From positions 180,389 to 244,388 of the forward strand of contig CAKOPN010000001.1 of NCBI GenBank assembly GCA_934100165.1: a DNA stretch of 64,000 bases, given 5' to 3'. The DNA comes from an uncultured Bacilli bacterium. Lineage in GTDB: Bacteria; Bacillota_I; Bacilli_A; RF39; UBA660. Both the position numbers and the translations under genes were made by a program. This document shows, piece after piece, positions 11,108 to 64,000 of the stretch. The notes beneath the pieces are model-generated. The model saw only the letters and a list, made by a program, of their open reading frames with translations, searched no databases and was not told the DNA's origin. Within the stretch, counting starts at the first letter, position 1. Every line of letters starts with the position of its first letter.

Positions 11108-11148
11108 GCAATAACAAAAAAGGTTATGTCTAGAAATTAAACATAACC
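11108..11148 (-). terminator. Intrinsic terminator after the DsbD-like gene
   Basis: 8-bp stem ggttatgt/acataacc with the stop codon in the loop, then a U-run. Confidence 0.5.
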
Positions 11149-12329
11149 CATTCTGGTTTAAATATTAAAAGTATTCCCATTAAAAGCATGATTATACCAC
11201 CAATTAGTGATGAATATTTTCCTACTTTTGTACTTGCAGTAGTTATATTAAGAGTTGCAACTGCAATAATAAATACAACCATATCGTCAAGCATATAAAA
11301 GATTGTGTAAATAATTAAATAAAGTATTCTTGTAAATCCAGTGACATTGTTAATAGCAAGAATTTCCGCAAATGTTGCAGGGAAAACTGTAGAACAAGCA
11401 AGTTCAACAAGATTTACTGATGCTGCTAGGACTATTACGCCAAGAAGTGCTAACCACAAGTTTTTCTCAGTAGTAAACTTTTTAATTCTCGTAAAAATCT
11501 TTTTACGTTTTTTTTCATCAACTACATGACATCCTGCTTCATCTTTTCTAGTATCTAAATATTTTTTAATATTGAAAAGCCCCACTACTAATGCCACTAC
11601 TCCGATAACACTACGTATCATTGGTACAGATATTACTGAAAAAATAGCAGTTATTCCGAGCATAGATAGAAAATACACGAACCCAGAAGTAAACAAAAAC
11701 ACAATACCTAAAAGAAGCATTCTTTTCTTATTTTTCATTCCGAAAAGCATGTTAATTAAAAACAATAATACCCACATAGCGCATGGATTAAAACCATCTA
11801 CTAAGCCTAAAATAACAGCTACAAGGCCAATGGAAACTTCTTTTGCATCTACTCTTCCTAAAAGTGGAATATCTTCTTTATCTTTTTCTGTTATAACCTC
11901 ATTATTCGTAACAAGATCCAAGTACTCCCTTATTTTAAGTTCTATCTTTTCTCCAACATAATCATTATAACCAACATAGCTTTCTTTTCCCACTACAGTA
12001 AAAGGAACACTAACATTTTCTGGCCTTTGAAGTAAAGATTTAACTGTAAGCATTTTATTTTTATTATCAACATTATTCCAGGTCTCATAATAAAATATAT
12101 TTACCTTATCACCATAATCATTTTTTACTTCTTCTAAAAACTCTTCTTCCTTCGCACAATGAGGACAACCATCACCATAAAAGAAATATACATTTATCTT
12201 TTCTTCCTCAACTTTCTCATCCAATACTTTATATAGCAAATCTTCATAATCTTTTGAAATAGCTAACGATTTAATAGGAAGTAAAGCTAGAAACAATAAA
12301 AGAAGACATTTAAATATTTTCTTTTCCAT
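11130..12329 (-). CDS. Thiol:disulfide interchange protein, a thioredoxin-like CPHC domain fused to a CcdA/DsbD transmembrane domain
   Basis: Signal peptide, a CPHC motif, then a multi-transmembrane DsbD-like core with conserved Cys residues. Confidence 0.7.
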   Translation of the reverse strand: MEKKIFKCLLLLFLALLPIKSLAISKDYEDLLYKVLDEKVEEEKINVYFFYGDGCPHCAKEEEFLEEVKNDYGDKVNIFYYETWNNVDNKNKMLTVKSLLQRPENVSVPFTVVGKESYVGYNDYVGEKIELKIREYLDLVTNNEVITEKDKEDIPLLGRVDAKEVSIGLVAVILGLVDGFNPCAMWVLLFLINMLFGMKNKKRMLLLGIVFLFTSGFVYFLSMLGITAIFSVISVPMIRSVIGVVALVVGLFNIKKYLDTRKDEAGCHVVDEKKRKKIFTRIKKFTTEKNLWLALLGVIVLAASVNLVELACSTVFPATFAEILAINNVTGFTRILYLIIYTIFYMLDDMVVFIIAVATLNITTASTKVGKYSSLIGGIIMLLMGILLIFKPEWVMFNF

Positions 12330-31488: not shown

Positions 31489-33249
31489 TTAATATCTTTG
31501 ATTCATATCTACAAATTCACTAGGTTCATAAACTGTACCAGTAAACCATACTTCTCCACTATCTTTATCTCTAATAATAAACATATATGGCTTATCAAAA
31601 GTTAAATCTATCTTTTCAACAGGAACTTCAAATAAATGATCATAGAAACCTCCATTTATATTTCCAGCTCCTCCTAACACAGTAGCGGCAGAAGCTTTTA
31701 TTCCTTCATTAGAAAATTCAATATTTGCTTTATGTCTAACTAATAAAATAAATTCACCTCTGGAAGAAACTATGCTAGATAAATCAGCTTTCGTCTGATC
31801 AAAAATATCTTCTACACCAAGTTTCTTTAAATCTTCTTTTAAATTAAGATTATATTCGAACTTAAATACAGGAATAGATGCATTTATTTCTATTACTTTG
31901 CCTTGATCAAAGCTTTCTGGTTTTATAGTTTTAAGTCCAGAAATAACATTGTTTAAAGTTTTTGCATCAACATTATTTATATACTCTTTTAGACTAACAT
32001 TTGTAGGCATTATACCAACATATTGTAGTGTTGTACCATCATAAGTCTTTAAATCTTTTGCAAAAGCTTTTACAGAGTCATCTGTATATACTAAGAAATC
32101 CGTTGATGATGAATACTTCCCGTAATTAGCATCAAGTTCGTCAATAAAATTATTAACAAACTTAGGAATATCAAGCTCATTCTCAGATTTTGCATATTCA
32201 TAGTTACGAGGATCTTCATTTAACCAGTTAGTATATTCTGTTTCTATCATTTTATAGATGTTATCTCTTCCTAGTTCTTTTACAATGTTATAGTTATTTA
32301 TTGTAGCACTTACATCTAAAACACCGGCATCATACTTATTATTAAATTTAACTTTTTCCATTGGTGTACCATCAGTTACAGAAACATAATTGTTATATTT
32401 TTCATGAGCAAAATAAAATTCCCAATAATAATCTCCTTTTGTACCATCTGGTTGAATTCTTTTAACCCATTCCATATCAATACCTAATGCATTAACAAGT
32501 GCAAAATCAAGATCTTTCAAATCAGCATCACTTACAACATTATCAATTAAGTTAAGAGTTTTATCCTTAACCCAAGCGTTAATTGTTTTAGCGTTTTCAA
32601 AAGAATCATATACTACATCAGCATCGTATTTCCCTTTTAACTTGTTAACATAACCAGCTTGTACCTCATCTTTGAAATCATTTCTTATAAACATAGCATT
32701 AGCAAGTGATATATTCTTACTGTTTACATATTTTTTTGATATATAATCGCCAACGATTGCATTGATTTGACCATATGAATCACCAGAAGCACCTTCTTTA
32801 AGCATTTGTAATGCATATTTAATTGAAAGTGGGCTGTATACTTTATTTATCTCTTCATTTTCAAGTTTTAAAAATTGAAGATCGAAATTTTCAAGCGAAT
32901 TACCACTCATTTTATACGGTGAAGTATATTTTTCATTTTCACTAACAATAGGATCTTTTTTTGGCTCCTTTTTATTAAGATTATTTAGGAAAAACACTTC
33001 TCCCACTATGCATGCAGCTGATATTATGACAAAGCAAATCCAAAATGTTATTTTCTTTTTGTTTCCCTCTTTTTTTGTCATATCTTTTTTCTCATTATCA
33101 TCTTGTTCTTTTACTATAACTTCTTCTTTATTATTATTTTGCACATCTAAAACCGTTTTTTCTGCATTATTTTCTTGTTCTTTTGCTATAGCATTTTCTG
33201 CATTATTTTCTTGTTCTTTCACAGTATCTTTTTTCTCACTATCTTCCAT
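31489..33249 (-). CDS. Serpin-family protease inhibitor with an N-terminal repeat region and a transmembrane anchor
   Basis: Serpin motifs YSPLSIKYALQMLKEGASGDS, a reactive-centre-loop-like GIKASAATVLGGAG, and the C-terminal signature FDKPYMFIIRD...WFTGTV. The N-terminus carries KEQENNAE repeats and a transmembrane helix. Confidence 0.7.
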   Translation of the reverse strand: MEDSEKKDTVKEQENNAENAIAKEQENNAEKTVLDVQNNNKEEVIVKEQDDNEKKDMTKKEGNKKKITFWICFVIISAACIVGEVFFLNNLNKKEPKKDPIVSENEKYTSPYKMSGNSLENFDLQFLKLENEEINKVYSPLSIKYALQMLKEGASGDSYGQINAIVGDYISKKYVNSKNISLANAMFIRNDFKDEVQAGYVNKLKGKYDADVVYDSFENAKTINAWVKDKTLNLIDNVVSDADLKDLDFALVNALGIDMEWVKRIQPDGTKGDYYWEFYFAHEKYNNYVSVTDGTPMEKVKFNNKYDAGVLDVSATINNYNIVKELGRDNIYKMIETEYTNWLNEDPRNYEYAKSENELDIPKFVNNFIDELDANYGKYSSSTDFLVYTDDSVKAFAKDLKTYDGTTLQYVGIMPTNVSLKEYINNVDAKTLNNVISGLKTIKPESFDQGKVIEINASIPVFKFEYNLNLKEDLKKLGVEDIFDQTKADLSSIVSSRGEFILLVRHKANIEFSNEGIKASAATVLGGAGNINGGFYDHLFEVPVEKIDLTFDKPYMFIIRDKDSGEVWFTGTVYEPSEFVDMNQRY

Positions 33250-34491: not shown

Positions 34492-36564
34492 TTATCCATA
34501 CATTTCAAAGAATTTATTTGTAACTAATCTAGTTATTCTAATATTTGCATAACTTCTTGTATCATCTTCGTTTGAACTTACTATATTAGGATATGTAAGC
34601 GCAATAGACATTTTAGGATTATTCAAAGGGTAAAAGCCGACAAAAGCATTGCTAATTGTAGGAGTATCGATAACACCATCACCGTCTGTATCTAAGAAAG
34701 ATTCACTAGTTCCCGTTTTTCCTGCTGCACCCTCTACTCCTCTCATATAGTTTTTCCCAAGACCTGTTGTTACAACTTCTCTAAATCCAAGTCTTACTCT
34801 ATCCATATACTCTTTTTTTATATCTAATGTATTAAGTACTATCGGTTCAGTTTTATATATAAGATTTTCAAATGGTGTATCACTATTACTTGCATAAACT
34901 TCTTTTAATAAATGAGGTTTATATCTTACCCCACTTGTTGCAATTGTTGAAATATATTCGGAAAGCTGCATAGTAGTATATGTATCATACTGACCAATTA
35001 CATAATTTAAAAGTAAATCAGGATCTTTCGATAAACCAATATTACCTACTCCATCAACAGGTAAATCTATTTCCGTTTTAACACCAAGACCTAAATCATT
35101 AAAGACTTTTCTATATTTAGAAAAAGTATTTTCTATAGATGTATCAAATTTGGCATTATAATGATAGTTAAACCCAGCAAGTTTCATAGCAGTTTTAAAC
35201 TGATAAACATTGGAAGACAAACTAAGTGCTGTAATATCATCAATTTTCCCCAAAGATTTCCAAGAACATTTTTTAGGTTTAGAATATATCTTAATACATT
35301 CATCTTTCATAACTTCACCTATTTCTATGGCACCCTCTTTAAAACCTGTGAGCATAGAAGCACCTTTAACTACACTACCAGGAGTAAATGGATTAGTTAA
35401 AGTACCAACAGTTACATCACGGAAATCATATTCATCACCATTTTTAAATATTTCAAGACCTGTCATCGCTAATATCTCACCAGTTGAAGGTTCTTTTATA
35501 ACGGCATAAACAGAGTTAAATCTTGATGTTCCAGGATCTTTTTTAGCCTTTATTAGTTCAGATTTAATTATCTTGTCAATTTCCTGTTGTAGTTCTATAT
35601 CTATAGTAAGCACTATATCATTTCCTCTTTGCCCTTTAGTAAGAGTAACTATTTCCCCATCTTCGATTTTATATGTACTTTTTACACCTTTTAAATATTC
35701 TTCATACTGTTTCTCTATATAACTTACTCCAACCTCATCATTTAAAGAATAACCAAGATTCAAATAATAATCCTTATCCTCTTTAGAAATTGATGATACA
35801 TTGCCAAGAATACTTCTAAATGTATCTCCATAAGGATATACTCTTTCAAAATCATATTTAATATAAAAGCCATTAAGGCTATTCAAAGCTTCAGAAATAT
35901 TAGCAAGTTCACTATCACTGATATCGCCCTTTTTAATAAGTTTTTCTTCATAAAAATAACCATTATTCATTAAATAATAAATATATATCACTTTCTTATC
36001 ATCATCTGTATATTTATCAAGTTCATCTTTAGTAATTCTACTTAATTTAAGTCTATAAATATCATCTGAACTAAGTTTTCTATTTTCATACTTTTCCCAT
36101 TCTTCATCAGTAATTAACTTCATAGCATCCCTACTATTAGTAACAAGATAATAATCTTTCATCATTCTCTCATTTACTTTGGATATATCTAGACTAACAA
36201 GAAGAGAAATATCCTTTGCTAGTTTAACTTCTTCACTTTCTGTTATTTTGTTTGGCTTAAAGTAATAAAGAGCCGCAACTTTTTTATTGTCTACTAAAAG
36301 TTTATGATTCCTATCATATATTCTACCCCTAGGAGCAGTCTTACTTTCATAAACATTACTAGTCATTTTAGAAAGTTTAACACTATAATAATCATGCTCA
36401 AAAATAATAATTCTAAAAGTAAAAATTAAAATTATTAAAAAAGAAAAACACACAATAAAAGAAAGAATACTTATACGTTTATTTATAGTTTTCTTTATTC
36501 CTACTGTCTTATTTACTTTATTCATTTTTCTATCCATATTTATCACATTATTATTTTGTATCAT
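34492..36564 (-). CDS. Penicillin-binding protein 2 class B transpeptidase
   Basis: N-terminal transmembrane helix, a dimerisation domain, and a transpeptidase domain with an SVVK (SxxK) motif. Confidence 0.8.
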   Translation of the reverse strand: MIQNNNVINMDRKMNKVNKTVGIKKTINKRISILSFIVCFSFLIILIFTFRIIIFEHDYYSVKLSKMTSNVYESKTAPRGRIYDRNHKLLVDNKKVAALYYFKPNKITESEEVKLAKDISLLVSLDISKVNERMMKDYYLVTNSRDAMKLITDEEWEKYENRKLSSDDIYRLKLSRITKDELDKYTDDDKKVIYIYYLMNNGYFYEEKLIKKGDISDSELANISEALNSLNGFYIKYDFERVYPYGDTFRSILGNVSSISKEDKDYYLNLGYSLNDEVGVSYIEKQYEEYLKGVKSTYKIEDGEIVTLTKGQRGNDIVLTIDIELQQEIDKIIKSELIKAKKDPGTSRFNSVYAVIKEPSTGEILAMTGLEIFKNGDEYDFRDVTVGTLTNPFTPGSVVKGASMLTGFKEGAIEIGEVMKDECIKIYSKPKKCSWKSLGKIDDITALSLSSNVYQFKTAMKLAGFNYHYNAKFDTSIENTFSKYRKVFNDLGLGVKTEIDLPVDGVGNIGLSKDPDLLLNYVIGQYDTYTTMQLSEYISTIATSGVRYKPHLLKEVYASNSDTPFENLIYKTEPIVLNTLDIKKEYMDRVRLGFREVVTTGLGKNYMRGVEGAAGKTGTSESFLDTDGDGVIDTPTISNAFVGFYPLNNPKMSIALTYPNIVSSNEDDTRSYANIRITRLVTNKFFEMYG

Positions 36565-42496: not shown

Positions 42497-43696
42497 TTAA
42501 AATTCTAGTTTTTCAATTTCATCATTATTTACCATAGGTGTAACAGAAACTGGTGTTGGTGCTACTGCTGGAGTAACTGGCGCAACAGGTGTTACTGGTG
42601 TAACAGGTACTGTTGGAGTTTGAATGCTGGAAGTAACTGTTGCTGTAAGTGTATCAACAGGTGCTGGTGCAACTGTTGGTGCAACTGGAATCGTTGGTTC
42701 AACAACAGGTATAGTTGGTACTGTAGGTACAACTGGTGTAACTGGTATTGTTGGAACAACTGGTGTTACAACTGGTTCAACTTTTACTTCTTCTTTAACT
42801 TGAGGTATTGGTCCTACTCCTGGAGCATTTATGCTAGGTTCCATTATAGGAGCACCTGCATAAGCTTCACGAACTGTTGCAGTTGGAATTGGGGCAGTAT
42901 TCTCAAGTGGATTAGCACCACCATATATTTCTCTTGGTTTTTCAATTAAATCTTCTTTGTTTATAAGTTCTGGATTAGCACCACCATACACAACTGGTGT
43001 TGGCTTAACTTCTTCTTTTACTTCTGGTACAACTGGTGTAACAGTTGCAACTTCAGGAGTTACTGGAAGTGGTGTTGGTGTAATTACTGGTGCTACTGGT
43101 TCAACTGTTGGAATAACTGGTGTTGAAACTTCATTTTCAATAGCAGGTGCACTAACACTTACTTCTACCGGTTTAACTTCATCTAATAATGGTTGAACTA
43201 CTGGTTGTGAAACTTCTGGTATTGGAGCCGGAATAACTGGTGTTGGTTCGATTGCTGGTTCAACAATTGGAGTTGTATCTATAACTGGTGTATTTAAAAT
43301 ACTTGGTGTCTCTTGAACTGGTTCTGGTGTTGGAATAGCATTTAAAATGCTTGGTGTTTCAACTGCAGGAGCAGCAGATTCAGAGAAGTTAATTGGCCCA
43401 ACTGGTGGAACATCATTAACAACTGGCTGTGGATTAACTTCTGGTGTAACTGGTTGTGGATTAGCATTAATGAATCCATTCATATCACCATTTACAGCCA
43501 TATTTGTATCAATATTAGGTACTGGGTCTTGTGCAACAGGGGCAGCATCTACAGATAAATCCTTATCTTTACCTTTACCCATACATAATAAAACAATTCC
43601 AATAATTAGTAATAAAATTCCAACAATAATAAGTATCCCTTCTGTTGAAGTAATAAATTCAACAATATCAAAACTTAATAATTCAAAAACATTCAT
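42497..43696 (-). CDS. Membrane-anchored Pro/Thr/Val-rich low-complexity repeat protein
   Basis: N-terminal transmembrane helix followed by PVTP/VVPT repeats and duplicated YGGANP motifs. Confidence 0.5.
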   Translation of the reverse strand: MNVFELLSFDIVEFITSTEGILIIVGILLLIIGIVLLCMGKGKDKDLSVDAAPVAQDPVPNIDTNMAVNGDMNGFINANPQPVTPEVNPQPVVNDVPPVGPINFSESAAPAVETPSILNAIPTPEPVQETPSILNTPVIDTTPIVEPAIEPTPVIPAPIPEVSQPVVQPLLDEVKPVEVSVSAPAIENEVSTPVIPTVEPVAPVITPTPLPVTPEVATVTPVVPEVKEEVKPTPVVYGGANPELINKEDLIEKPREIYGGANPLENTAPIPTATVREAYAGAPIMEPSINAPGVGPIPQVKEEVKVEPVVTPVVPTIPVTPVVPTVPTIPVVEPTIPVAPTVAPAPVDTLTATVTSSIQTPTVPVTPVTPVAPVTPAVAPTPVSVTPMVNNDEIEKLEF

Positions 43697-50080: not shown

Positions 50081-50157
50081 TGGTCGGGAAGACAGGATTT
50101 GAACCTGCAACCCCTTGGTCCCAAACCAAGTGCTCTACCAAATTGAGCCACTTCCCG
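50081..50157 (-). tRNA. tRNA-Pro (anticodon UGG)
   Basis: Cloverleaf with anticodon loop UUUGGGA and CCA encoded. Confidence 0.8.
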
Positions 50158-50167
50158 AACAACAAAA

Positions 50168-50244
50168 TGGTGCGCTCGAAGGGATTCGAACCCCTGACCT
50201 TTTGGTTCGTAGCCAAACACTCTATCCAGCTGAGCTACGAGCGC
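50168..50244 (-). tRNA. tRNA-Arg (anticodon ACG)
   Basis: GCGCTCGTAGCTCAGCTGG...CTACGAA anticodon loop...GGTTCGAATCC. Confidence 0.8.
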
Positions 50245-50274
50245 GTTGGATACGTTAATTTTTACTTTATTAAA

Positions 50275-50350
<76 letters not shown>

Positions 50351-50353
50351 ATA

Positions 50354-50429
50354 TGGCGGTTTCGACGGGGATTGAACCCGCGATCTTCTGCGTGACAGGC
50401 AGACGTGTTAACCACTGCACTACGAAACC
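50354..50429 (-). tRNA. tRNA-Asp (anticodon GUC)
   Basis: GGTTTCGTAGTGCAGTGG...CTGTCAC anticodon loop...GGTTCAATCC. Confidence 0.85.
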
Positions 50430-50431
50430 AT

Positions 50432-50508
<77 letters not shown>

Positions 50509-50516
50509 ATATATAA

Positions 50517-50609
50517 TGGCGGAGGAAAAGGGATTCGAACCCCTGCGTCGCTTGCGCGGCCTCCCGGTTTTCAAGACCGGTCCCTTCAACCAGACTTGGG
50601 TATTCCTCC
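50517..50609 (-). tRNA. tRNA-Ser (anticodon UGA)
   Basis: Long variable arm and anticodon loop CUUGAAA. Confidence 0.8.
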
Positions 50610-51142: not shown

Positions 51143-51176
51143 GACAAAAAAAGAGTTATTTCAATTTTAACTCTTC
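51143..51176 (-). terminator. Intrinsic terminator overlapping the end of the DivIVA-domain gene
   Basis: aagagtta/taactctt stem including the stop codon, followed by UUUUUUU. Confidence 0.45.
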
Positions 51177-51599
51177 TATTTCGTCTATAACGGCTAGTTG
51201 TTGTTCAACAACTAGTTTTAATTTTCTTTTAAAAATCCTCATGTTTCTCTCTAAAGTGTCAGATCTAATTTCAATTTTTTCTGCTCGTAAAAGTGCATCA
51301 TTAACAATTCTTGAAGCATTTTTTCTAGCATCATCTATTATAGAGTTTCTTTCTTCATAAGCACCTTTTCGTATTTCTGTACTCGCTTCCTCTGCTTTAT
51401 AAAGTGCTCGTTTAAGTTCTCCTTCACTTTTCTTATAGTTTACTATCTCACTTTTTAATTTCTCGTTGTCATCATGAAGTTTTTTCATTTTATCAAGCAT
51501 GCCTTCAGTTTGGGCAATTACATCATCAACAAATTTATTAACTTCAGAAACACTATATCCTTTATCTTCAACTTTAAATTTATCCAAAGTAATCACCAC
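51156..51599 (-). CDS. DivIVA-domain protein
   Basis: N-terminal DivIVA motif FKVEDKGYSVSEVNKFVDDV plus a coiled coil. Confidence 0.7.
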   Translation of the reverse strand: MVITLDKFKVEDKGYSVSEVNKFVDDVIAQTEGMLDKMKKLHDDNEKLKSEIVNYKKSEGELKRALYKAEEASTEIRKGAYEERNSIIDDARKNASRIVNDALLRAEKIEIRSDTLERNMRIFKRKLKLVVEQQLAVIDEIEELKLK

Positions 51600-51616: not shown

Positions 51617-52054
51617 CTACCAGTTATATTCATCCTCTTCTACTTCTTCTGTCTTTTTATTACTTTTTGCTGGTTTTGCATTATCATCAGAAATCTTTCC
51701 TTCTACACTAATTGATTTAGGTGTGCAAAGGAATATTCCTCCTCCAAGTTTTTGTAAATCTCCACCAATTGCATATATAGTACCGCTCAAGAAATCTACA
51801 ATTCTCTTTGCTTGATCAGGTGTAACTCTTTTTAAGTTAACTACAACTGAAGAGTTGCCTTTCAAGTAATCTGCAATTTGCTGTGACTCAGAATATGCTC
51901 TAGGTTCTAATAAAATCATTGTGTTCTCAGCACTCTTTGGAACATAACTACCGTCACCCATAACTGTACTATCATCAATAGTTTCTTCATCTATATCCTC
52001 TTGGCTACCAAAAATACCCTTAATCTTTTCAAATGCCATCTCTCTATCCTCCAT
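51617..52054 (-). CDS. sepF: Cell division protein SepF
   Basis: [29 protein letters not shown]...[18 protein letters not shown]. Confidence 0.8.
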
Positions 52055-52130
52055 TATCTATATACAACATTTTAACATACTTTACAATACTTTTCAAAGT
52101 ACTTTATCAAAAACTTAAGCCTGTTTACAT

Positions 52131-53906
52131 TTATAATGCATACCATATTTTTGCAACATCACTATTGCTACTATAAGGTTCAGGATTAGGTCTTTCCATT
52201 TTAAGAGAAACCGGAACCTTAAATGCACTACCAAATGCTATTGCGCATCCTGGCTGTAATGTTTTAAGTATCGCCAAAATCTCATCACTTACATTAGGAA
52301 CCATTTCTTTTATATACTGTAAATCTTTAGGATGTAATGTTCTAAGTATAATAAAGTTAGAACACTGAGAAATACTAGTATCACTAAGTTCACTTGGTCT
52401 TTGAGTAATTAACCCCAAAAGAATACCGTATTTTCTTCCCTCTTTAGTTATTCTATCAAAAATATTATATCCAAGAAGTTCTGCATCTTTATCATTTTGA
52501 ACATATCTATGTGCTTCTTCTATAATTATATGGAAAGGTGTTTTACCTCTAATATCATTGTTTACAGAATAATCAAATAATATTTTAGAAATAATTTTTG
52601 TAATTGCTTTTGCCATTCTATCATCAACATAGTTAATATTAAAGTCTATAAGTTGAACTTTTTTGCCTTCTTTTGTAGTAAGTAAGTCACTTATATAAGC
52701 TCCCCTATTAACCATTTTGTCATATTTAAAATATTCTTGATAACTACTATTTGCTAAAGAATGTAGTCTAACTGATAAAATATTTGCATAGTCAAAGACT
52801 TTATCACTCTTAAGTATTCCTTCAGAAATAAGTGCAAAATCAAGTGCATTTTCCAAATCTTTCAAATCATACATTACATCGCCACGAGGAGCATTTAATT
52901 CAAGCCCTTCAACAATAAATGTACTTATAAAATTAACAACAAGTTCCATTTCTTGCATTTTGCCATTATTATCAACATATATACATTGTTTTAAAGTTCT
53001 AACATAACCTGGTTGAATTATTTTACTCTCTAAGTTCAAAAGTTCTGTATTAAAAGTAGACAATACCGCTGTTATTTGATCTCTTATTTTTATAGAATCT
53101 TTTCCACTTTTCAAAATATCTAACAGTGCTCTTGCAATGATATCATTTTTTAATCTAATCGCTTCTTCATTTGTACTTACTAACACAGGAACAAGTTTTA
53201 ATGCTTTTTCAATTATTGGAAGCTGCATTGAATTAGTAGCACCAAGCAAAATAGCAATATCATCAACATCTAAAAGCCATAAAGGAATTCTAAGTATTTC
53301 CGCATCACTTTGACGTGTATTTGTAGTATATGTTTTAAAGTTAAGGCTTGGATTAAAGTTATGTAAAAAACTAAATGCATTTTTATATTCGCCATATGCA
53401 TCAAAAATAAACATATTGGCATTAACAGGTAAATATTTTGATGTAGTAAAAATGTTTTGAATTATTCTTGCAAAAGTACAACTTTTACCAGATCCAGTAT
53501 TACCAAGTATTGCAAAATGGTTACTAAAAAATGGGTTAACTTCAACATTTATTTTGTAGTTAGCATACACAGAAGATGTACCAAGTGCTATTTGAGTACT
53601 ATCTGTTATCTCTTGTTTACCCAAAATAAGTGATAACTCTCCGATTGAAATAATTCGTACAAAAGATGAAAAAGAAGGCTTTACTGTAACACCAGGAACA
53701 AATCTTTCACCAACAAACTCACCAACAATACCAACTTTTATATATTCTTTATCTACTTTAAGGATTTCTCCTACTAATTTTTTCTTTCTGTCATCGAAAA
53801 CAACATGAATGTTCATCAAGTTACCACAATTTAAAATATTTGAATCAATACTAATTGTAACTATGTTGCCTTCAACATCAATTATTTTTCCCAAACTATT
53901 ATTCAT
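52131..53906 (-). CDS. HerA-like ATPase (N-terminal HAS barrel plus DUF87 P-loop NTPase)
   Basis: Walker A ILGNTGSGKS, Walker B FHIIIEEAHRY, and an N-terminal beta-barrel-like segment. The start is refined to the ATG (MNNSLGK) with an AGGGTGG ribosome-binding site. It has its own extended -10 promoter. Confidence 0.65.
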   Translation of the reverse strand: MNNSLGKIIDVEGNIVTISIDSNILNCGNLMNIHVVFDDRKKKLVGEILKVDKEYIKVGIVGEFVGERFVPGVTVKPSFSSFVRIISIGELSLILGKQEITDSTQIALGTSSVYANYKINVEVNPFFSNHFAILGNTGSGKSCTFARIIQNIFTTSKYLPVNANMFIFDAYGEYKNAFSFLHNFNPSLNFKTYTTNTRQSDAEILRIPLWLLDVDDIAILLGATNSMQLPIIEKALKLVPVLVSTNEEAIRLKNDIIARALLDILKSGKDSIKIRDQITAVLSTFNTELLNLESKIIQPGYVRTLKQCIYVDNNGKMQEMELVVNFISTFIVEGLELNAPRGDVMYDLKDLENALDFALISEGILKSDKVFDYANILSVRLHSLANSSYQEYFKYDKMVNRGAYISDLLTTKEGKKVQLIDFNINYVDDRMAKAITKIISKILFDYSVNNDIRGKTPFHIIIEEAHRYVQNDKDAELLGYNIFDRITKEGRKYGILLGLITQRPSELSDTSISQCSNFIILRTLHPKDLQYIKEMVPNVSDEILAILKTLQPGCAIAFGSAFKVPVSLKMERPNPEPYSSNSDVAKIWYAL

Positions 53907-53925
53907 ACTTGCCACCCTATTCTAA

Positions 53926-53938
53926 AAAGATTATAGCA
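53926..53938 (-). promoter_or_regulatory. Extended -10 promoter (TGcTATAAT) for the HerA-like gene
   Basis: Minus-strand tgtgcTATAAT about 20 nt upstream of the ribosome-binding site. A terminator of the upstream M16 gene lies at 53977..53997. Confidence 0.45.
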
Positions 53939-53969
53939 CAGAACAAAAAGATTAAAAAGTATTTTTGTA

Positions 53970-53997
53970 AAAAAAAGAAAGTATCAAAAGTACTTTC
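53970..53997 (-). terminator. Intrinsic terminator after the M16 peptidase gene
   Basis: gaaagta-N7-tactttc hairpin followed by UUUUUUUU. Confidence 0.5.
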
Positions 53998-57330: not shown

Positions 57331-59628
57331 TTAGTTATTATCAATATTTTCACTATTATCTATTTTTACCAAAACCTCACGAGGTTTAGAGCCATTTTGT
57401 GGGCCAATTATTCCCCTTTCTTCAAGTAAATCGATTATTCTTGCTGCTCTATTGTAACCTAGTTTAAATCTTCTTTGTAAAAGCGATGCAGATGCTTTAC
57501 CAGATGTTATTACAAACTCAACTATTTCATCGTACAACGGATCATCATATTCTTCCTCAGTCTCATGAACACCGCCGCCAGCATTTCCCATATCCTTAGC
57601 AGCATTTAAATTCATGAATTTTTCATCATACTGAGCTTTTTGTTGTTCAACAGTGTATGCAACAAGTGATTCTATTTCTTCATCTGAAACATAAGCACCT
57701 TGTATTCTCTCTGGAGAACTTTCTCCCATCGGTAAGAATAACATATCACCTTTTCCAAGTAGTTTTTCAGCACCAGTCTGATCAAGAATAGTACGTGAAT
57801 CTATACCACTAGAAACTGCAAATGATATACGTGATGGAATATTTGCTTTTACAACACCTGTAATTACATCAGTAGATGGTCTTTGTGTTGCTACAATAAG
57901 ATGAATACCTGCAGCTCTTGCTTTTTGAGTAATTCTCATGATAGAGTCTTCAACTTCTTTTCCTGCTACCATCATAAGATCTGCAAGCTCATCTACAATA
58001 ACAACTATATAAGGCATCTTAGCTATCTTATCGTCTTCACTTCTAACTTGGTTTTCTTTATCAACCCATTCGTTGTAACCTTTAATATTTCTAACATTCT
58101 TCTCTTCTAGCTCGTCATAACGTCTTTCCATTTCATCAACCATTTTTTGAAGAGCAACATTAGCTTTTTTAGGATCCGTTACAACTGGCATAAGTAAATG
58201 AGGAATCCCATTATAAACAGAAAGCTCTACTTTCTTAGGGTCAACCAAGACAAGTTTTACTTCATCAGGTTTAGCACGCATTAAAATTGATGCAATTATA
58301 CAGTTAATACAAACTGATTTACCACTACCAGTAGCACCAGCTACTAATAAGTGAGGAGTTTTATCAATTTCTGCAAACAAGCTCTTACCCATAATGTTTT
58401 TACCAAGAGCAACTAAAAGTTTATTGCCAACTTTGTTTTGTGGGACGTTTTCAAGTATCTCTCTTAATGATACCATAGCTACAGTTTCATTAGGAATTTC
58501 AATTCCAACCGTACTCTTTCCTGGAATAGGTGCTTCTATTCTTATATCTTTTTTAGCTAATGCTAAAGAAAGTTCACGATTTATACTTAACAATTTGCTT
58601 AGTTTTGTACCTGTTTGAATTTCCATCTCATACTGAGTAACACTAGGTCCACTATTGACTTCAACAACCTTACCAATAATTCCAAAATCGCGTAAAGTTT
58701 TTTCAAGTATCATTATATTTTTTTCAATAACAGCTTGATTATTTAAGCTTTTTTTACGTTCAGGAGGTTTAAGAAGACTAAGTGTAGGTAAAATATAGTT
58801 ACTCTTAGGAACAGTTTGGACATTTTCAACTACTTCAGCAGGTTTATTTTCTTCTTCCTTTTCTTCTCTTACTTCGTTATTCATTCTTTTCAATTCATCA
58901 ATACTTGAAATAACAAGCTTTGGTTCAGCTGGATCAGTCTCTTCCTTTGGTGCATTATTATCGTTAATAATAACAACAGGGCTTTTCTTCTCTTCTTCAT
59001 CTTTATCTTTAGAGTCAGAGTTCTTTTCTTTCTTTTTAATAATAGACTTACTCTTTTCAATACCGTTTTTTACAAAATCAACAATAGAGAATCCCGTAAA
59101 GAAACAAGTACCTGTAATCATTAAAATTATTGCAACTATTTTTGTACCAGTATAATCAAACAAAATATTAAATGCTACTGCAAGAGCACATCCAATAATT
59201 CCACTACCATAAGTAGTAAAAGGGGCTCCATTTTTAATGCTTTCTGTAGTAGCCATTATGTCATCTACAGTCTCTTTAAAGATTATTTCTGCATTGCCAC
59301 TATTTTCAATAACATAATTTAAATGAGCAAAAACAAGTACCCCTATCATAACAATTAAAAGACCAATAAATTTTGTAGACCAAAACGAAGGTGATTTGCC
59401 TTTGAAAAGCATATAAACACCAACGCAAAATACTGCAGCTATAAATAACCAGTCTAAAGTACCAAATAAAAATATTGCAAAACTTCTAGCAAGCTTTCCA
59501 ATATACCCAAGTGGCTTACCAGGACCAAAAGCCATAATAGCAAGGATTATTAAAACAACACCATATAACCCAGTGCTATACTCAAACTTTTTCTTTTTAT
59601 CATCTTTTCTACTTTTCTTTTTTCCCAT
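57331..59628 (-). CDS. ftsK: DNA translocase FtsK/SpoIIIE
   Basis: N-terminal transmembrane region, a linker, a Walker A motif AGATGSGKS, and a C-terminal gamma domain. Confidence 0.9.
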   Translation of the reverse strand: MGKKKSRKDDKKKKFEYSTGLYGVVLIILAIMAFGPGKPLGYIGKLARSFAIFLFGTLDWLFIAAVFCVGVYMLFKGKSPSFWSTKFIGLLIVMIGVLVFAHLNYVIENSGNAEIIFKETVDDIMATTESIKNGAPFTTYGSGIIGCALAVAFNILFDYTGTKIVAIILMITGTCFFTGFSIVDFVKNGIEKSKSIIKKKEKNSDSKDKDEEEKKSPVVIINDNNAPKEETDPAEPKLVISSIDELKRMNNEVREEKEEENKPAEVVENVQTVPKSNYILPTLSLLKPPERKKSLNNQAVIEKNIMILEKTLRDFGIIGKVVEVNSGPSVTQYEMEIQTGTKLSKLLSINRELSLALAKKDIRIEAPIPGKSTVGIEIPNETVAMVSLREILENVPQNKVGNKLLVALGKNIMGKSLFAEIDKTPHLLVAGATGSGKSVCINCIIASILMRAKPDEVKLVLVDPKKVELSVYNGIPHLLMPVVTDPKKANVALQKMVDEMERRYDELEEKNVRNIKGYNEWVDKENQVRSEDDKIAKMPYIVVIVDELADLMMVAGKEVEDSIMRITQKARAAGIHLIVATQRPSTDVITGVVKANIPSRISFAVSSGIDSRTILDQTGAEKLLGKGDMLFLPMGESSPERIQGAYVSDEEIESLVAYTVEQQKAQYDEKFMNLNAAKDMGNAGGGVHETEEEYDDPLYDEIVEFVITSGKASASLLQRRFKLGYNRAARIIDLLEERGIIGPQNGSKPREVLVKIDNSENIDNN

Positions 59629-62490: not shown

Positions 62491-63225
62491 CTACCAGCTA
62501 CCAGACCATGAAGCCACAGCATTAGTTATTGTATCATAATTATTTGCAACACTTGAATTAAGAAATATACCACCAGATTGTACAACAGAATACGATGTTG
62601 AATTTAGCAAGGAAACAGTACTAGTAGCATGAGCATAATCACCATATGCATATTGCGAATATATCATATTATTTGTATTTTTTTCAACATCAAAATAAAA
62701 AGTTTGTCTCAAAGTAGTTAAATTACCAGTAGGTAGTTTAAAAGAAGTACCAGCTCCTGAAACAAATATTTGAGGATAATTCGTTTTTGATGTATAACAA
62801 GAACCATCAGAATGGCAATAATATTGTTCAAAATATATTGTATTTGATTTTACTTTTACAGATTGTAAAAATCCAATTCCAATAATATCATAACTTCTGC
62901 AAGATGGCATTTTTTTCCAGTTAAGAACATTTTGATATCTATAGAAATTACCATTAGTAAAAATCGAAGAAGTCATGCTTTTATACGTTGTTTCTATAAC
63001 AGTAGAATCGCTTCTAAGTAATTTTATAGAAGTGTCAGCTGCATTATATTCTTCTTTGCTTATTTCAAAAGAAACTGTATCATTATACAAATTTGTTTCC
63101 ACTCTATAATATTTAGTAACCTCAGAAATCAATTTAAAATCATTTTCAAGTGCAAAAACTGTTTTTGGTACAAGTAACAAAACAAACATAATAAAACAAC
63201 ACATAAAAATTAGCTTTTTTTTCAT
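62491..63225 (-). CDS. Hypothetical secreted protein (signal peptide, several Cys)
   Basis: N-terminal signal MKKKLIFMCCFIMFVLLLVP...A. No family assignment. Confidence 0.45.
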   Translation of the reverse strand: MKKKLIFMCCFIMFVLLLVPKTVFALENDFKLISEVTKYYRVETNLYNDTVSFEISKEEYNAADTSIKLLRSDSTVIETTYKSMTSSIFTNGNFYRYQNVLNWKKMPSCRSYDIIGIGFLQSVKVKSNTIYFEQYYCHSDGSCYTSKTNYPQIFVSGAGTSFKLPTGNLTTLRQTFYFDVEKNTNNMIYSQYAYGDYAHATSTVSLLNSTSYSVVQSGGIFLNSSVANNYDTITNAVASWSGSW

Positions 63226-63278: not shown

Positions 63279-64000
63279 TTATAAAATATGTATTTCCTTT
63301 TTCACTAAAACCGAGTCCATATAATAATCTAAACGTAATGTTAAGTTATCAACATTTGTTTTTTCATTCCTTTCACATACAAAAGTGTACCTATTTAAAA
63401 TATCATACATACTAGTTTCTTCTTCAAAATTATTTATATCGGTACACAATTCTACGTCATCAGAGTACAAACTTATCTTAAAGTAATTTGTCTTCACTTC
63501 TTTATCAGTACCTGCATTTAAATCATCATAAACAATCTTGTTAATAATAAGTTTTGTTTCTACATGATTTTTAATTAAATAACCAGACATTTTAAATTCT
63601 CCATCAATATCAATAGCTTTAAAATCCCAACTATAATATTCGTTAGCAAAAAAAACAATAATAAAAGCAATAGCTAGTATTCCAAATACATATAAAAACC
63701 TTATAATTACGTCATGCTTTGTTTGATCAGAATAAGCTTTAATAACATCAACAGTATTGTTATTACTGCAAACATCTATTTTGGTTCCATTCAATAATTC
63801 ATCAATGCTTATTTCAAACAAAGATGAGAGCGTCTTGAGCATTGTAATATCAGGGGCCACAATTCCACGCTCCCACTTTGACACAGTTTTTTCTCCGACA
63901 TAAATTATTTCGGATAATTGCTTTTGTGTATAACCTTTTTTCTTTCTTAATTCAGCAATATTTTTCCCTATCTTAAGTAACGTTGTTTTATTATTTTCCA
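63279..64000 (-). CDS. Membrane-anchored XRE-family HTH regulator (5-prime end runs off the window)
   Basis: An upstream in-frame extension encodes the HTH KIGKNIAELRKKKGYTQKQLSEIIYVGEKTVSKWERG. This is followed by a transmembrane helix and a roughly 110-aa extracytoplasmic domain. Confidence 0.55.
   Translation of the reverse strand, partial: ENNKTTLLKIGKNIAELRKKKGYTQKQLSEIIYVGEKTVSKWERGIVAPDITMLKTLSSLFEISIDELLNGTKIDVCSNNNTVDVIKAYSDQTKHDVIIRFLYVFGILAIAFIIVFFANEYYSWDFKAIDIDGEFKMSGYLIKNHVETKLIINKIVYDDLNAGTDKEVKTNYFKISLYSDDVELCTDINNFEEETSMYDILNRYTFVCERNEKTNVDNLTLRLDYYMDSVLVKKEIHIL

Follow-up and report, generated by a model that had tools for sequence, protein, structure and literature searches.

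A 64-kb stretch of contig CAKOPN010000001.1 from an uncultured Bacilli bacterium (the window; all coordinates are window positions) carries, within a cluster of cell division genes, a gene that almost certainly encodes an ATPase of the HerA family. The DNA is AT-rich (G+C of ∼28%) with nearly all genes on the minus strand, and along the coding strand the order is ftsA, ftsZ, ftsK, a gene of the purine-nucleoside-phosphorylase family (PNP), two M16 peptidase genes, herA, sepF, divIVA, and six tRNA genes. The placement of the gene in an ftsA-ftsZ-ftsK...sepF-divIVA cluster was already recognized in a first-pass annotation of this DNA, which took it for an unusual standalone copy inserted among division genes, with a possible function in DNA translocation or defense. 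From the analysis below, the window herA is very probably a vertically inherited housekeeping gene rather than a defense module. The uninterrupted open reading frame (ORF) in the ORF list spans 52131..53915 (minus strand), and the likely start codon gives a protein of 591 aa, a trivial difference from the 592 aa first reported. The genes and signals around it are as follows.

57331..59628, minus strand: ftsK, a true FtsK gene, 3.4 kb upstream of herA.
53969..53997, minus strand: possible intrinsic terminator 3′ of the M16 peptidase gene, formed by a weak AT-rich hairpin GAAAGTA/TACTTTC with T8 after it.
53930..53938, minus strand: putative extended -10 promoter-like pattern TGcTATAAT (pattern only), 24 nt upstream of the start codon.
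53912..53918, minus strand: ribosome-binding site AGGGTGG, 5 nt ahead of ATG 53906, read from the sequence.
52131..53906, minus strand: coding sequence for the partner-less ATPase of the HerA family (591 aa and a stop codon), likely start ATG 53906.
52069..52097, minus strand: promoter-like site (TTGAAA, 17 nt, TAAAAT with TG) inside the 76-nt gap between herA and sepF.
51617..52054, minus strand: sepF (Pfam SepF, 4.6e-26), directly downstream of herA.
51156..51599, minus strand: divIVA (Pfam DivIVA, 1.2e-23), after sepF.

Close relatives of the protein are numerous. The protein database holds >120 protein clusters at 72–82% identity, from “Bacilli bacterium” metagenome-assembled genomes (MAGs), and a scan of one genome per species gave at least 570 confirmed matches among GTDB species genomes. 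The carriers are uncultured MAGs of ∼1.2–1.5 Mb labeled Bacilli, “Tenericutes,” “Mollicutes,” Candidatus Faecisoma, or Candidatus Coprosoma, names that we take to denote an RF39-like lineage. For genomic context the 80 best GTDB loci (52–73% identity to the window HerA) of these at least 570 matches were taken, 86 loci in all, and their ORFs were called and clustered. The order ftsA-ftsZ-ftsK-PNP-M16-M16-HerA-sepF-divIVA is identical in relatives at 79 and 73% identity, and the divergence of HerA tracks that of FtsK and SepF: at locus L001 the identities to the window are 79% for HerA, 80% for FtsK, 70% for SepF, 76% for DivIVA, 64% for FtsA, and 60–66% for the M16 proteins, and at locus L017 they are 60% for HerA, 58% for FtsK, 46% for FtsA, and 28–39% for the M16 proteins. 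Walker A, Walker B, and TQRP motifs are invariant in the orthologues, and the full-length ORF is kept over hundreds of species at 52–82% identity. Because HerA identity tracks that of core genes, we conclude that the gene has been vertically inherited under strong purifying selection, unlike an accessory defense gene. Its G+C content (0.28–0.29) is that of its surroundings, which, with the gene order shared by relatives at 73–79% identity and the parallel divergence of FtsK and SepF, contradicts the earlier view of an insertion. The relatives at no fewer than 570 places in species genomes show a housekeeping family that is broadly conserved in this lineage, a result that the first-pass annotation had named as counting against its view, and this copy is typical of its lineage. 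The conserved block has a downstream limit: rpmB (on the opposite strand) and a gene for a PHP-domain DNA polymerase III of the alpha type come after divIVA in the closest relatives, so that synteny ends at divIVA. The window instead carries its six tRNA genes, for Ser, Met, Asp, Phe, Arg, and Pro, at 50081-50609 (minus strand), ∼550 bp downstream of divIVA.

On the downstream side, 41 of the 80 GTDB species loci have sepF immediately after herA and in the same orientation, with divIVA next in nearly all of these, and 4 further loci have an opposite-strand rhomboid protease gene between herA and sepF. Every sepF-linked locus encodes a HerA with at least 57% identity to that of the window. The upstream neighbor is variable across loci (an M16 pair, a PP2C phosphatase gene plus a lipoprotein gene, an HD-domain gene, and others). 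Across the 41 loci, the gap between herA and sepF has a median of 76 bp, is at most 119 bp in 39, and lacks any run of six or more T residues in 34. In the window itself, the predicted fold of this 76-nt gap is no stronger than that of shuffled sequence (z = +0.7), and the scan shows no terminator pattern in it; of the two flanking terminators that the first-pass annotation had placed here, the downstream one is not supported. The upstream one may correspond to the weak hairpin with T8 listed above, which folds with -6 kcal/mol (z = -1.6; 12 of 200 shuffled sequences fold as well) and was not passed by a scan for G+C-rich terminators. The extended -10 element that had been noted is likewise present as a pattern, missed by a -35/-10 scan because of its poor -35. 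Given the short gaps in 41 species and the lack of a 3′ terminator, co-transcription with sepF-divIVA is more likely than the monocistronic arrangement first proposed, and we regard herA as likely co-transcribed with these genes on the basis of gene order and spacing.

The protein has the following domains and motifs, listed from the N terminus.

53541..53906, minus strand: HAS-type β-barrel domain, residues 1–122, from AlphaFold strands and a Foldseek alignment to solved HerA barrels.
53481..53504, minus strand: Walker A motif GNTGSGKS, residues 135–142, read from the sequence.
52677..53267, minus strand: mainly helical insert, residues ∼214–410, between Walker A and Walker B in the AlphaFold model, the counterpart of the helical bundle found in bacterial HerAs.
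52509..52532, minus strand: Walker B region HIIIEEAH, residues 459–466, read from the sequence.
52395..52406, minus strand: TQRP motif, residues 501–504, with a counterpart, ATQRP, in the window's own FtsK.

Profile searches place the protein among the HerAs. The Pfam family PF01935 (DUF87, “Helicase HerA central domain”) matches with 75.5 bits against a cut-off of 23.2, and PDLC04102, the strongest of the PADLOC HerA models, matches residues 53–590 with 390 bits. These scores bear out the HerA/DUF87 assignment of the first-pass annotation, and the motifs GNTGSGKS and IIIEEAHRY (residues 460–468) and the N-terminal β-barrel that it described are all present. The scores fall below the cut-offs of the curated NCBIfam models, both for the antiphage HerA equivalogs (NF042943, 164.7 versus 800; NF042944, 155.5 versus 850) and for the repair HerAs (NF040819, 99.2 versus 970; NF040937, 110.9 versus 800), and the protein thus lies outside every curated NCBIfam HerA subfamily. 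The Pfam FtsK_SpoIIIE family (PF01580) covers the P-loop segment only (residues 103–157, 27.6 bits), and there is no Pfam match to FtsK_alpha or FtsK_gamma, whereas the FtsK orthologues of related loci match all three FtsK domains; the window HerA is not an FtsK-family protein. Sequence matches in the PDB are all HerA (E about 1e-45 to 1e-21), the top one being 9c1m (160 bits, E = 1e-45), the HerA of a HerA-DUF4297 system (bioRxiv 10.1101/2024.10.24.620088), followed by SIR2-HerA proteins, with archaeal HerA more distant.

A first AlphaFold run, made from a shallow alignment (A2, 73–82% identity), gave a pLDDT of 58 and was superseded by a second run on alignment A4, to which a divergent sister clade had been added. 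The resulting monomer model (pLDDT 82.9, pTM 0.80) has the P-loop core, helices spanning residues 214–409, and barrel strands at residues 6–12, 15–20, 34–38, 43–51, 55–65, 68–71, 82–85, 105–111, and 118–122 with a pLDDT of ∼80–90. In Foldseek the top structural match is 8yhx_A (full length, TM 0.72/0.76), the HerA that belongs to a SIR2-HerA system from S. aureus and whose domains are described as HAS, ATPase, and helical bundle (PMC11514289). Full-length TM scores are 0.62–0.76 to antiphage HerAs (S. aureus, E. coli, and others), with 0.6–0.7 for the SIR2-HerA structures other than 8yhx_A and for those of HerA-DUF4297 (∼0.65), and 0.56 to the archaeal HerA from a HerA-NurA complex. Residues Gly-135, Gly-138, Gly-140, and Lys-141 of Walker A are invariant in alignment A1, in which Glu-463 and Ala-465 of Walker B are also conserved; His-459 and Glu-463 through Tyr-468 are invariant over the RF39-like orthologues and the ffh-linked clade (alignment A4), as are Gln-502, Arg-503, and Pro-504 of the TQRP motif (alignments A2 and A4). 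In the FtsK-HerA superfamily this last motif has a sensor or arginine-finger role. Fold and catalytic motifs are therefore intact, and by comparison with homologues (8zis, 8xau, and others) the protein would assemble into a hexameric ring.

Bacterial HerAs have been studied almost entirely within two-gene modules, for defense (SIR2-HerA and HerA-DUF4297) or repair (HerA-NurA). No SIR2, NurA, or DUF4297/Cap4-like gene adjoins the window herA, whose neighbors in the Pfam search are the M16 peptidase gene and sepF, and there is no mre11 or rad50 neighbor. Outside the 48.4–62.2-kb cluster, PADLOC and Pfam detect no SIR2, NurA, DUF4297, or Cap4-like gene in the 45 ORFs with a length of 120 aa or more, and inside it Pfam detects no partner family in the ten large ORFs. 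With herA 10 kb from the end of the window, an adjacent partner just beyond it, which the first-pass annotation had allowed for, is excluded. Beside the orthologues the pattern is the same, with an adjacent SIR2 gene in 0 of 86 loci and neither NurA or another nuclease nor DUF4297 as a recurrent neighbor; as a positive control, a SIR2 gene was found beside the more distant HerAs P0136 and P0138 and those of Enterococcus and Listeria plasmids. The absence of a NurA, Sir2, or DUF4297 partner, first reported for the immediate surroundings, thus extends to the 64 kb and to the 86 loci.

Several candidates were considered and set aside in the course of this search. The recurrent neighbors of the orthologues, namely a lipoprotein (cluster c13), a small membrane protein (c130), ribosomal protein L28 (c17), and a rhomboid protease (c35), were rejected as effectors, and none of yqeG, yqeH, and the PP2C phosphatase gene is a plausible candidate. 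PADLOC matches elsewhere in the window (MzaA, SspA/DndA, RT_UG29, RTasDnaG-like, mad2, and pVip; not mapped to ORFs) were read as housekeeping look-alikes, because every family that Pfam lists for the same 45 ORFs is of a core type (DnaG primase, sigma-70 domains, glycyl-radical enzyme, and class-V aminotransferase). A prophage or phage origin was also rejected, the phage search having given only three weak partial matches, one of them to a terminase.

Comparison with the characterized systems shows what is shared and what is not. SIR2-HerA ATPases (S. aureus 8yhx/8yho, E. coli “Nezha” 8j4u/8sub, 8wiv/8wld, and the Listeria and Enterococcus plasmid pairs) have the same HAS barrel, RecA-like core, and helical bundle and are the best structural matches, with a full-length identity of 31–37% to the window HerA. 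There, however, a SIR2 NADase gene adjoins and usually overlaps herA, and the pairs sit on plasmids or islands, whereas the window herA has no such gene and is vertically inherited in core neighborhoods; its barrel is also shorter, lacking three insertions of the SIR2-linked relatives. The HerA-DUF4297 systems (9c1m, 8ziq, 8xau) provide the best PDB sequence match and a TM of ∼0.65, but no DUF4297/Cap4-like nuclease gene occurs in the window or at the orthologue loci. HerA-NurA (4d2i, 9x1l/9x1m), a hexameric DNA motor, belongs to the same superfamily and has the same domain order, but it is farther away in sequence (E = 1e-25 to 1e-21) and structure (TM 0.56), and nurA is not a neighbor here. 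As the defining partner of each of these systems was sought and not found and the curated cut-offs are not reached, the window HerA is none of the three. FtsK/SpoIIIE and SftA share with it the FtsK-HerA superfamily, the P-loop, and TQRP, but in place of the FtsK alpha and gamma domains it has the HAS barrel and the helical insert; the likeness to SftA is a functional analogy prompted by the adjacency of sepF. In fold and chemistry, then, the window HerA is ordinary, and what is unusual is that it is effector-less, vertically inherited, and linked to division genes.

Searching 1.84 billion representative proteins exhaustively gave a graded series of full-length relatives, which reach from partner-less genes in other neighborhoods to SIR2-linked ones (identities are to the window HerA).

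P0124, 47% identity: alone, after an LtaS-like gene.
P0125, P0134, and P0336 (large clade, 714–976 aa), 34–44% identity: flanked by ylxM and ffh, with ftsY, recA, RNase Y, and RNase J in the same region.
P0127, 41% identity: directly after an rmuC-family gene.
P0273 (shares a 90% cluster with P0130), 37% identity (P0130): between rpmH-rnpA-yidC-jag and dnaA-dnaN.
P0136 and P0138, 34–36% identity: SIR2 gene immediately upstream, within defense islands.
Enterococcus and Listeria plasmid copies, 31–32% identity: annotated SIR2 gene immediately upstream.

In a rough, midpoint-rooted neighbor-joining tree with 100 bootstraps, the partner-less HerAs form one clade (100/100), which groups with the SIR2-linked HerAs of Firmicutes plasmids and defense islands (76/100). 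Alignment A1 shows that the barrels of the partner-less HerAs are without the three short insertions present in the SIR2-linked P0136-P0138. In the S. aureus system it is the barrel of HerA that inserts into the SIR2 ring (PMC11514289).

Some members of this clade deserve separate mention. At L088:6597-8348 a partner-less herA lies between rpmH-rnpA-yidC-jag and dnaA-dnaN with a 413-bp gap to dnaA, a position that is presumably the usual site of the replication origin. At L090:4331-7172 the P0127 gene lies 44 bp downstream of, and on the same strand as, a gene of the rmuC family (PF02646), the only possible nuclease neighbor seen. Some distant members (P0129, P0131, and P0134; A1 columns ∼680–690) have a degenerate Walker B region, with NIILEKAD, HAIIESAE, and HLLIDNAH instead of the HIIIEEAH of the window HerA; these could be paralogues with impaired catalysis or lineages that evolve fast. 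About one-quarter of the RF39-like orthologues carry C-terminal tails of 30–120 residues rich in Gln, Pro, and Asn (L024, L025, L028, L030, L032, L037, L038, L043-L045, L055, L059-L061, L063, L064, L069, L073, L076, and also P0122); the window HerA has none. An N-R/K-F-I-Q peptide (e.g. QNRFIQ) recurs in about one-third of the tailed orthologues and looks like a tethered partner-binding motif. The sister clade between ylxM and ffh (P0274-P0392, P0125, P0126, and P0134; L086, L092, and L093) consists of proteins of 714–976 aa. Their C-terminal tails, of low complexity and very long, finish with conserved peptides of two sorts, either G-x-P-L-V-S-I-T-P-(D/E)-D-M-L-E or L-V-x-F-I-(E/D)-N-M, or else an acidic run closing in G-V-D-F-A that is reminiscent of SSB-type acidic tails.

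The reading we favor is that the window gene encodes an effector-less housekeeping HerA motor that probably works on DNA and for which a coupling to division is a possibility; taken whole, we hold it tentatively and rate it at slightly under an even chance. Considered on its own, action on DNA is somewhat more probable than not, to judge from characterized homologues, whereas a coupling to division, suggested by analogy, is possible if doubtful. Like the characterized HerAs, the hexamer would use ATP to travel along DNA or to unwind it, but it would activate no toxic effector. More speculatively, it could be co-expressed with SepF and DivIVA and might act with them at the septum or pole, clearing or segregating chromosomal DNA in the manner of SftA. 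This FtsK homologue of B. subtilis is without transmembrane helices and binds the membrane by an N-terminal amphipathic helix, and it interacts with SepF, its septal localization depending on SepF or FtsA (PMC9320952). Of the two functions offered by the first-pass annotation, DNA translocation accordingly survives as a best guess drawn from homology, and defense is disfavored by the absent effector, the core neighborhoods, and the FtsK- and SepF-like divergence.

A number of points weigh against this proposal, and in particular against the part concerning division. Linkage to sepF is not universal: orthologues at 52–56% identity follow yqeG-yqeH and are without sepF, and the more distant clade members are flanked by ylxM and ffh or by rpmH and dnaA, or come behind rmuC. 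Gene order by itself therefore points to core functions generally rather than to division specifically. Adjacency conserved within one lineage may merely reflect slow rearrangement. Because a full-length membrane FtsK is encoded 3.4 kb upstream, the need for another translocase at the septum is not obvious. The substrate of the window HerA is argued from homology, and its localization is speculative, by analogy. The search for partners covered the window and the neighborhoods of the loci, so that an unlinked nuclease or SIR2 gene may lie elsewhere in the genome. Finally, the rough, midpoint-rooted tree is compatible with either direction of change, from defense to housekeeping or the reverse.

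The main rival, which we consider unlikely, is that the protein is a repair or recombination helicase whose nuclease is encoded elsewhere, working in end resection of the HerA-NurA kind, the adjacency of sepF then being incidental. Characterized HerA-NurA complexes, from archaea as well as bacteria, act in the resection of DNA ends (PMC9960219, PMC12977600), and the fold of the window protein matches the HerA of such a complex at a TM of 0.56. The position of P0127 (41% identity), 44 bp behind the rmuC-family gene, and of other clade members in regions with recA, recX, or dnaA-dnaN-recF-gyrB would also suit a role in repair. However, the rmuC adjacency is a single case, and across the 86 loci no NurA or other nuclease recurs among the neighbors. 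The scores against the NCBIfam repair HerA models are far under the cut-offs (99 versus 970 and 111 versus 800), and in both sequence and structure the protein is nearer to the SIR2- and DUF4297-type HerAs than to the NurA type.

Less probable again, and in our view improbable, is a motor or scaffold with a substrate other than DNA, for example an ATPase that remodels divisome proteins or regulates them (assemblies of SepF or FtsZ), or one that moves a different polymer. The FtsK-HerA superfamily does include non-chromosomal motors, such as the VirB4-like ones to which the window HerA has weak NCBIfam matches, and co-transcription with sepF-divIVA is likely here. The disordered C-terminal tails of other lineages, with their conserved peptides (NRFIQ, PLVSITP, and the acidic GVDFA), are also typical of partner tethering, but the window HerA is itself tail-less, and nothing specific favors another substrate. 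The characterized close relatives bind DNA, and several solved complexes contain it (8xaw, 8ziq, 8zit, and 9x1m).

That the gene is an anti-phage defense gene fixed in the lineage, either solo or with an effector elsewhere, is highly improbable, despite the SIR2-HerA and HerA-DUF4297 ATPases being its nearest characterized relatives and the strong matches to PADLOC HerA models. Against it stand the lack of an effector in the window or beside the orthologues, the stable core neighborhoods (at least five contexts, none a variable island), divergence at the rate of FtsK and SepF with relatives at no fewer than 570 places in species genomes, and NCBIfam antiphage HerA scores of 165 bits (cut-off 800) and 156 bits (cut-off 850). 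Moreover, the toxic activity of SIR2-HerA resides in SIR2 and not in HerA (PMC11514289). A decayed, functionless remnant of a SIR2-HerA pair after loss of its effector would account for the grouping with SIR2-linked HerAs and for the missing partner, but a full-length ORF with all catalytic motifs kept over hundreds of species at 52–82% identity requires purifying selection, which excludes a dead remnant and leaves this explanation a negligible chance.

The effector-less housekeeping motor that we favor can be extended into a fuller evolutionary scenario, though one that we consider distinctly unlikely in its entirety. A motor of the SIR2-HerA type would have lost its effector and become a core, divisome-linked DNA translocase, co-transcribed with sepF-divIVA across an order-level lineage of uncultured gut Bacilli. 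In the sister lineages, long disordered tails with short conserved peptides would tether it to partners. A role of HerA in chromosome segregation has long been proposed, and a domesticated, divisome-linked HerA, if real, would be a bacterial counterpart of that role and a functional analogue of SftA. Should the motor act on the chromosome during division, it would clearly exemplify how immune and housekeeping machinery can be exchanged and would add a new division component in a poorly known lineage. The analysis identifies a monophyletic clade of effector-less HerAs whose gene is core-like across several hundred species of Bacilli that are abundant in gut and rumen but uncultured; in many of these species it is probably in an operon with sepF-divIVA. 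A description of this clade was not found in the searchable literature, the coverage of which is incomplete, making this weak evidence of novelty. Annotation and defense-prediction pipelines that use HerA profiles should not count the partner-less clade as defense.

Elsewhere in the window, four ORFs of 201–399 aa, all on the minus strand, have no Pfam match at E ≤ 1e-5 (62491-63225, 63279-63884, 11130-12329, and 42497-43696), and two of them lie just upstream of ftsA. Three sigma-70-family genes are present, not mapped to individual ORFs. An ORF of 586 aa at 31489-33249 (minus strand) encodes a C-terminal serpin domain (Pfam Serpin, 1e-43, in two stretches) behind an N-terminal half of ∼200–400 residues without a family match; serpins are uncommon in bacteria. 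The window also encodes a class-B penicillin-binding protein (34492-36564, minus strand) and MreC, which indicates that this small-genome, “Mollicutes-like” lineage appears to make peptidoglycan and is not wall-less.

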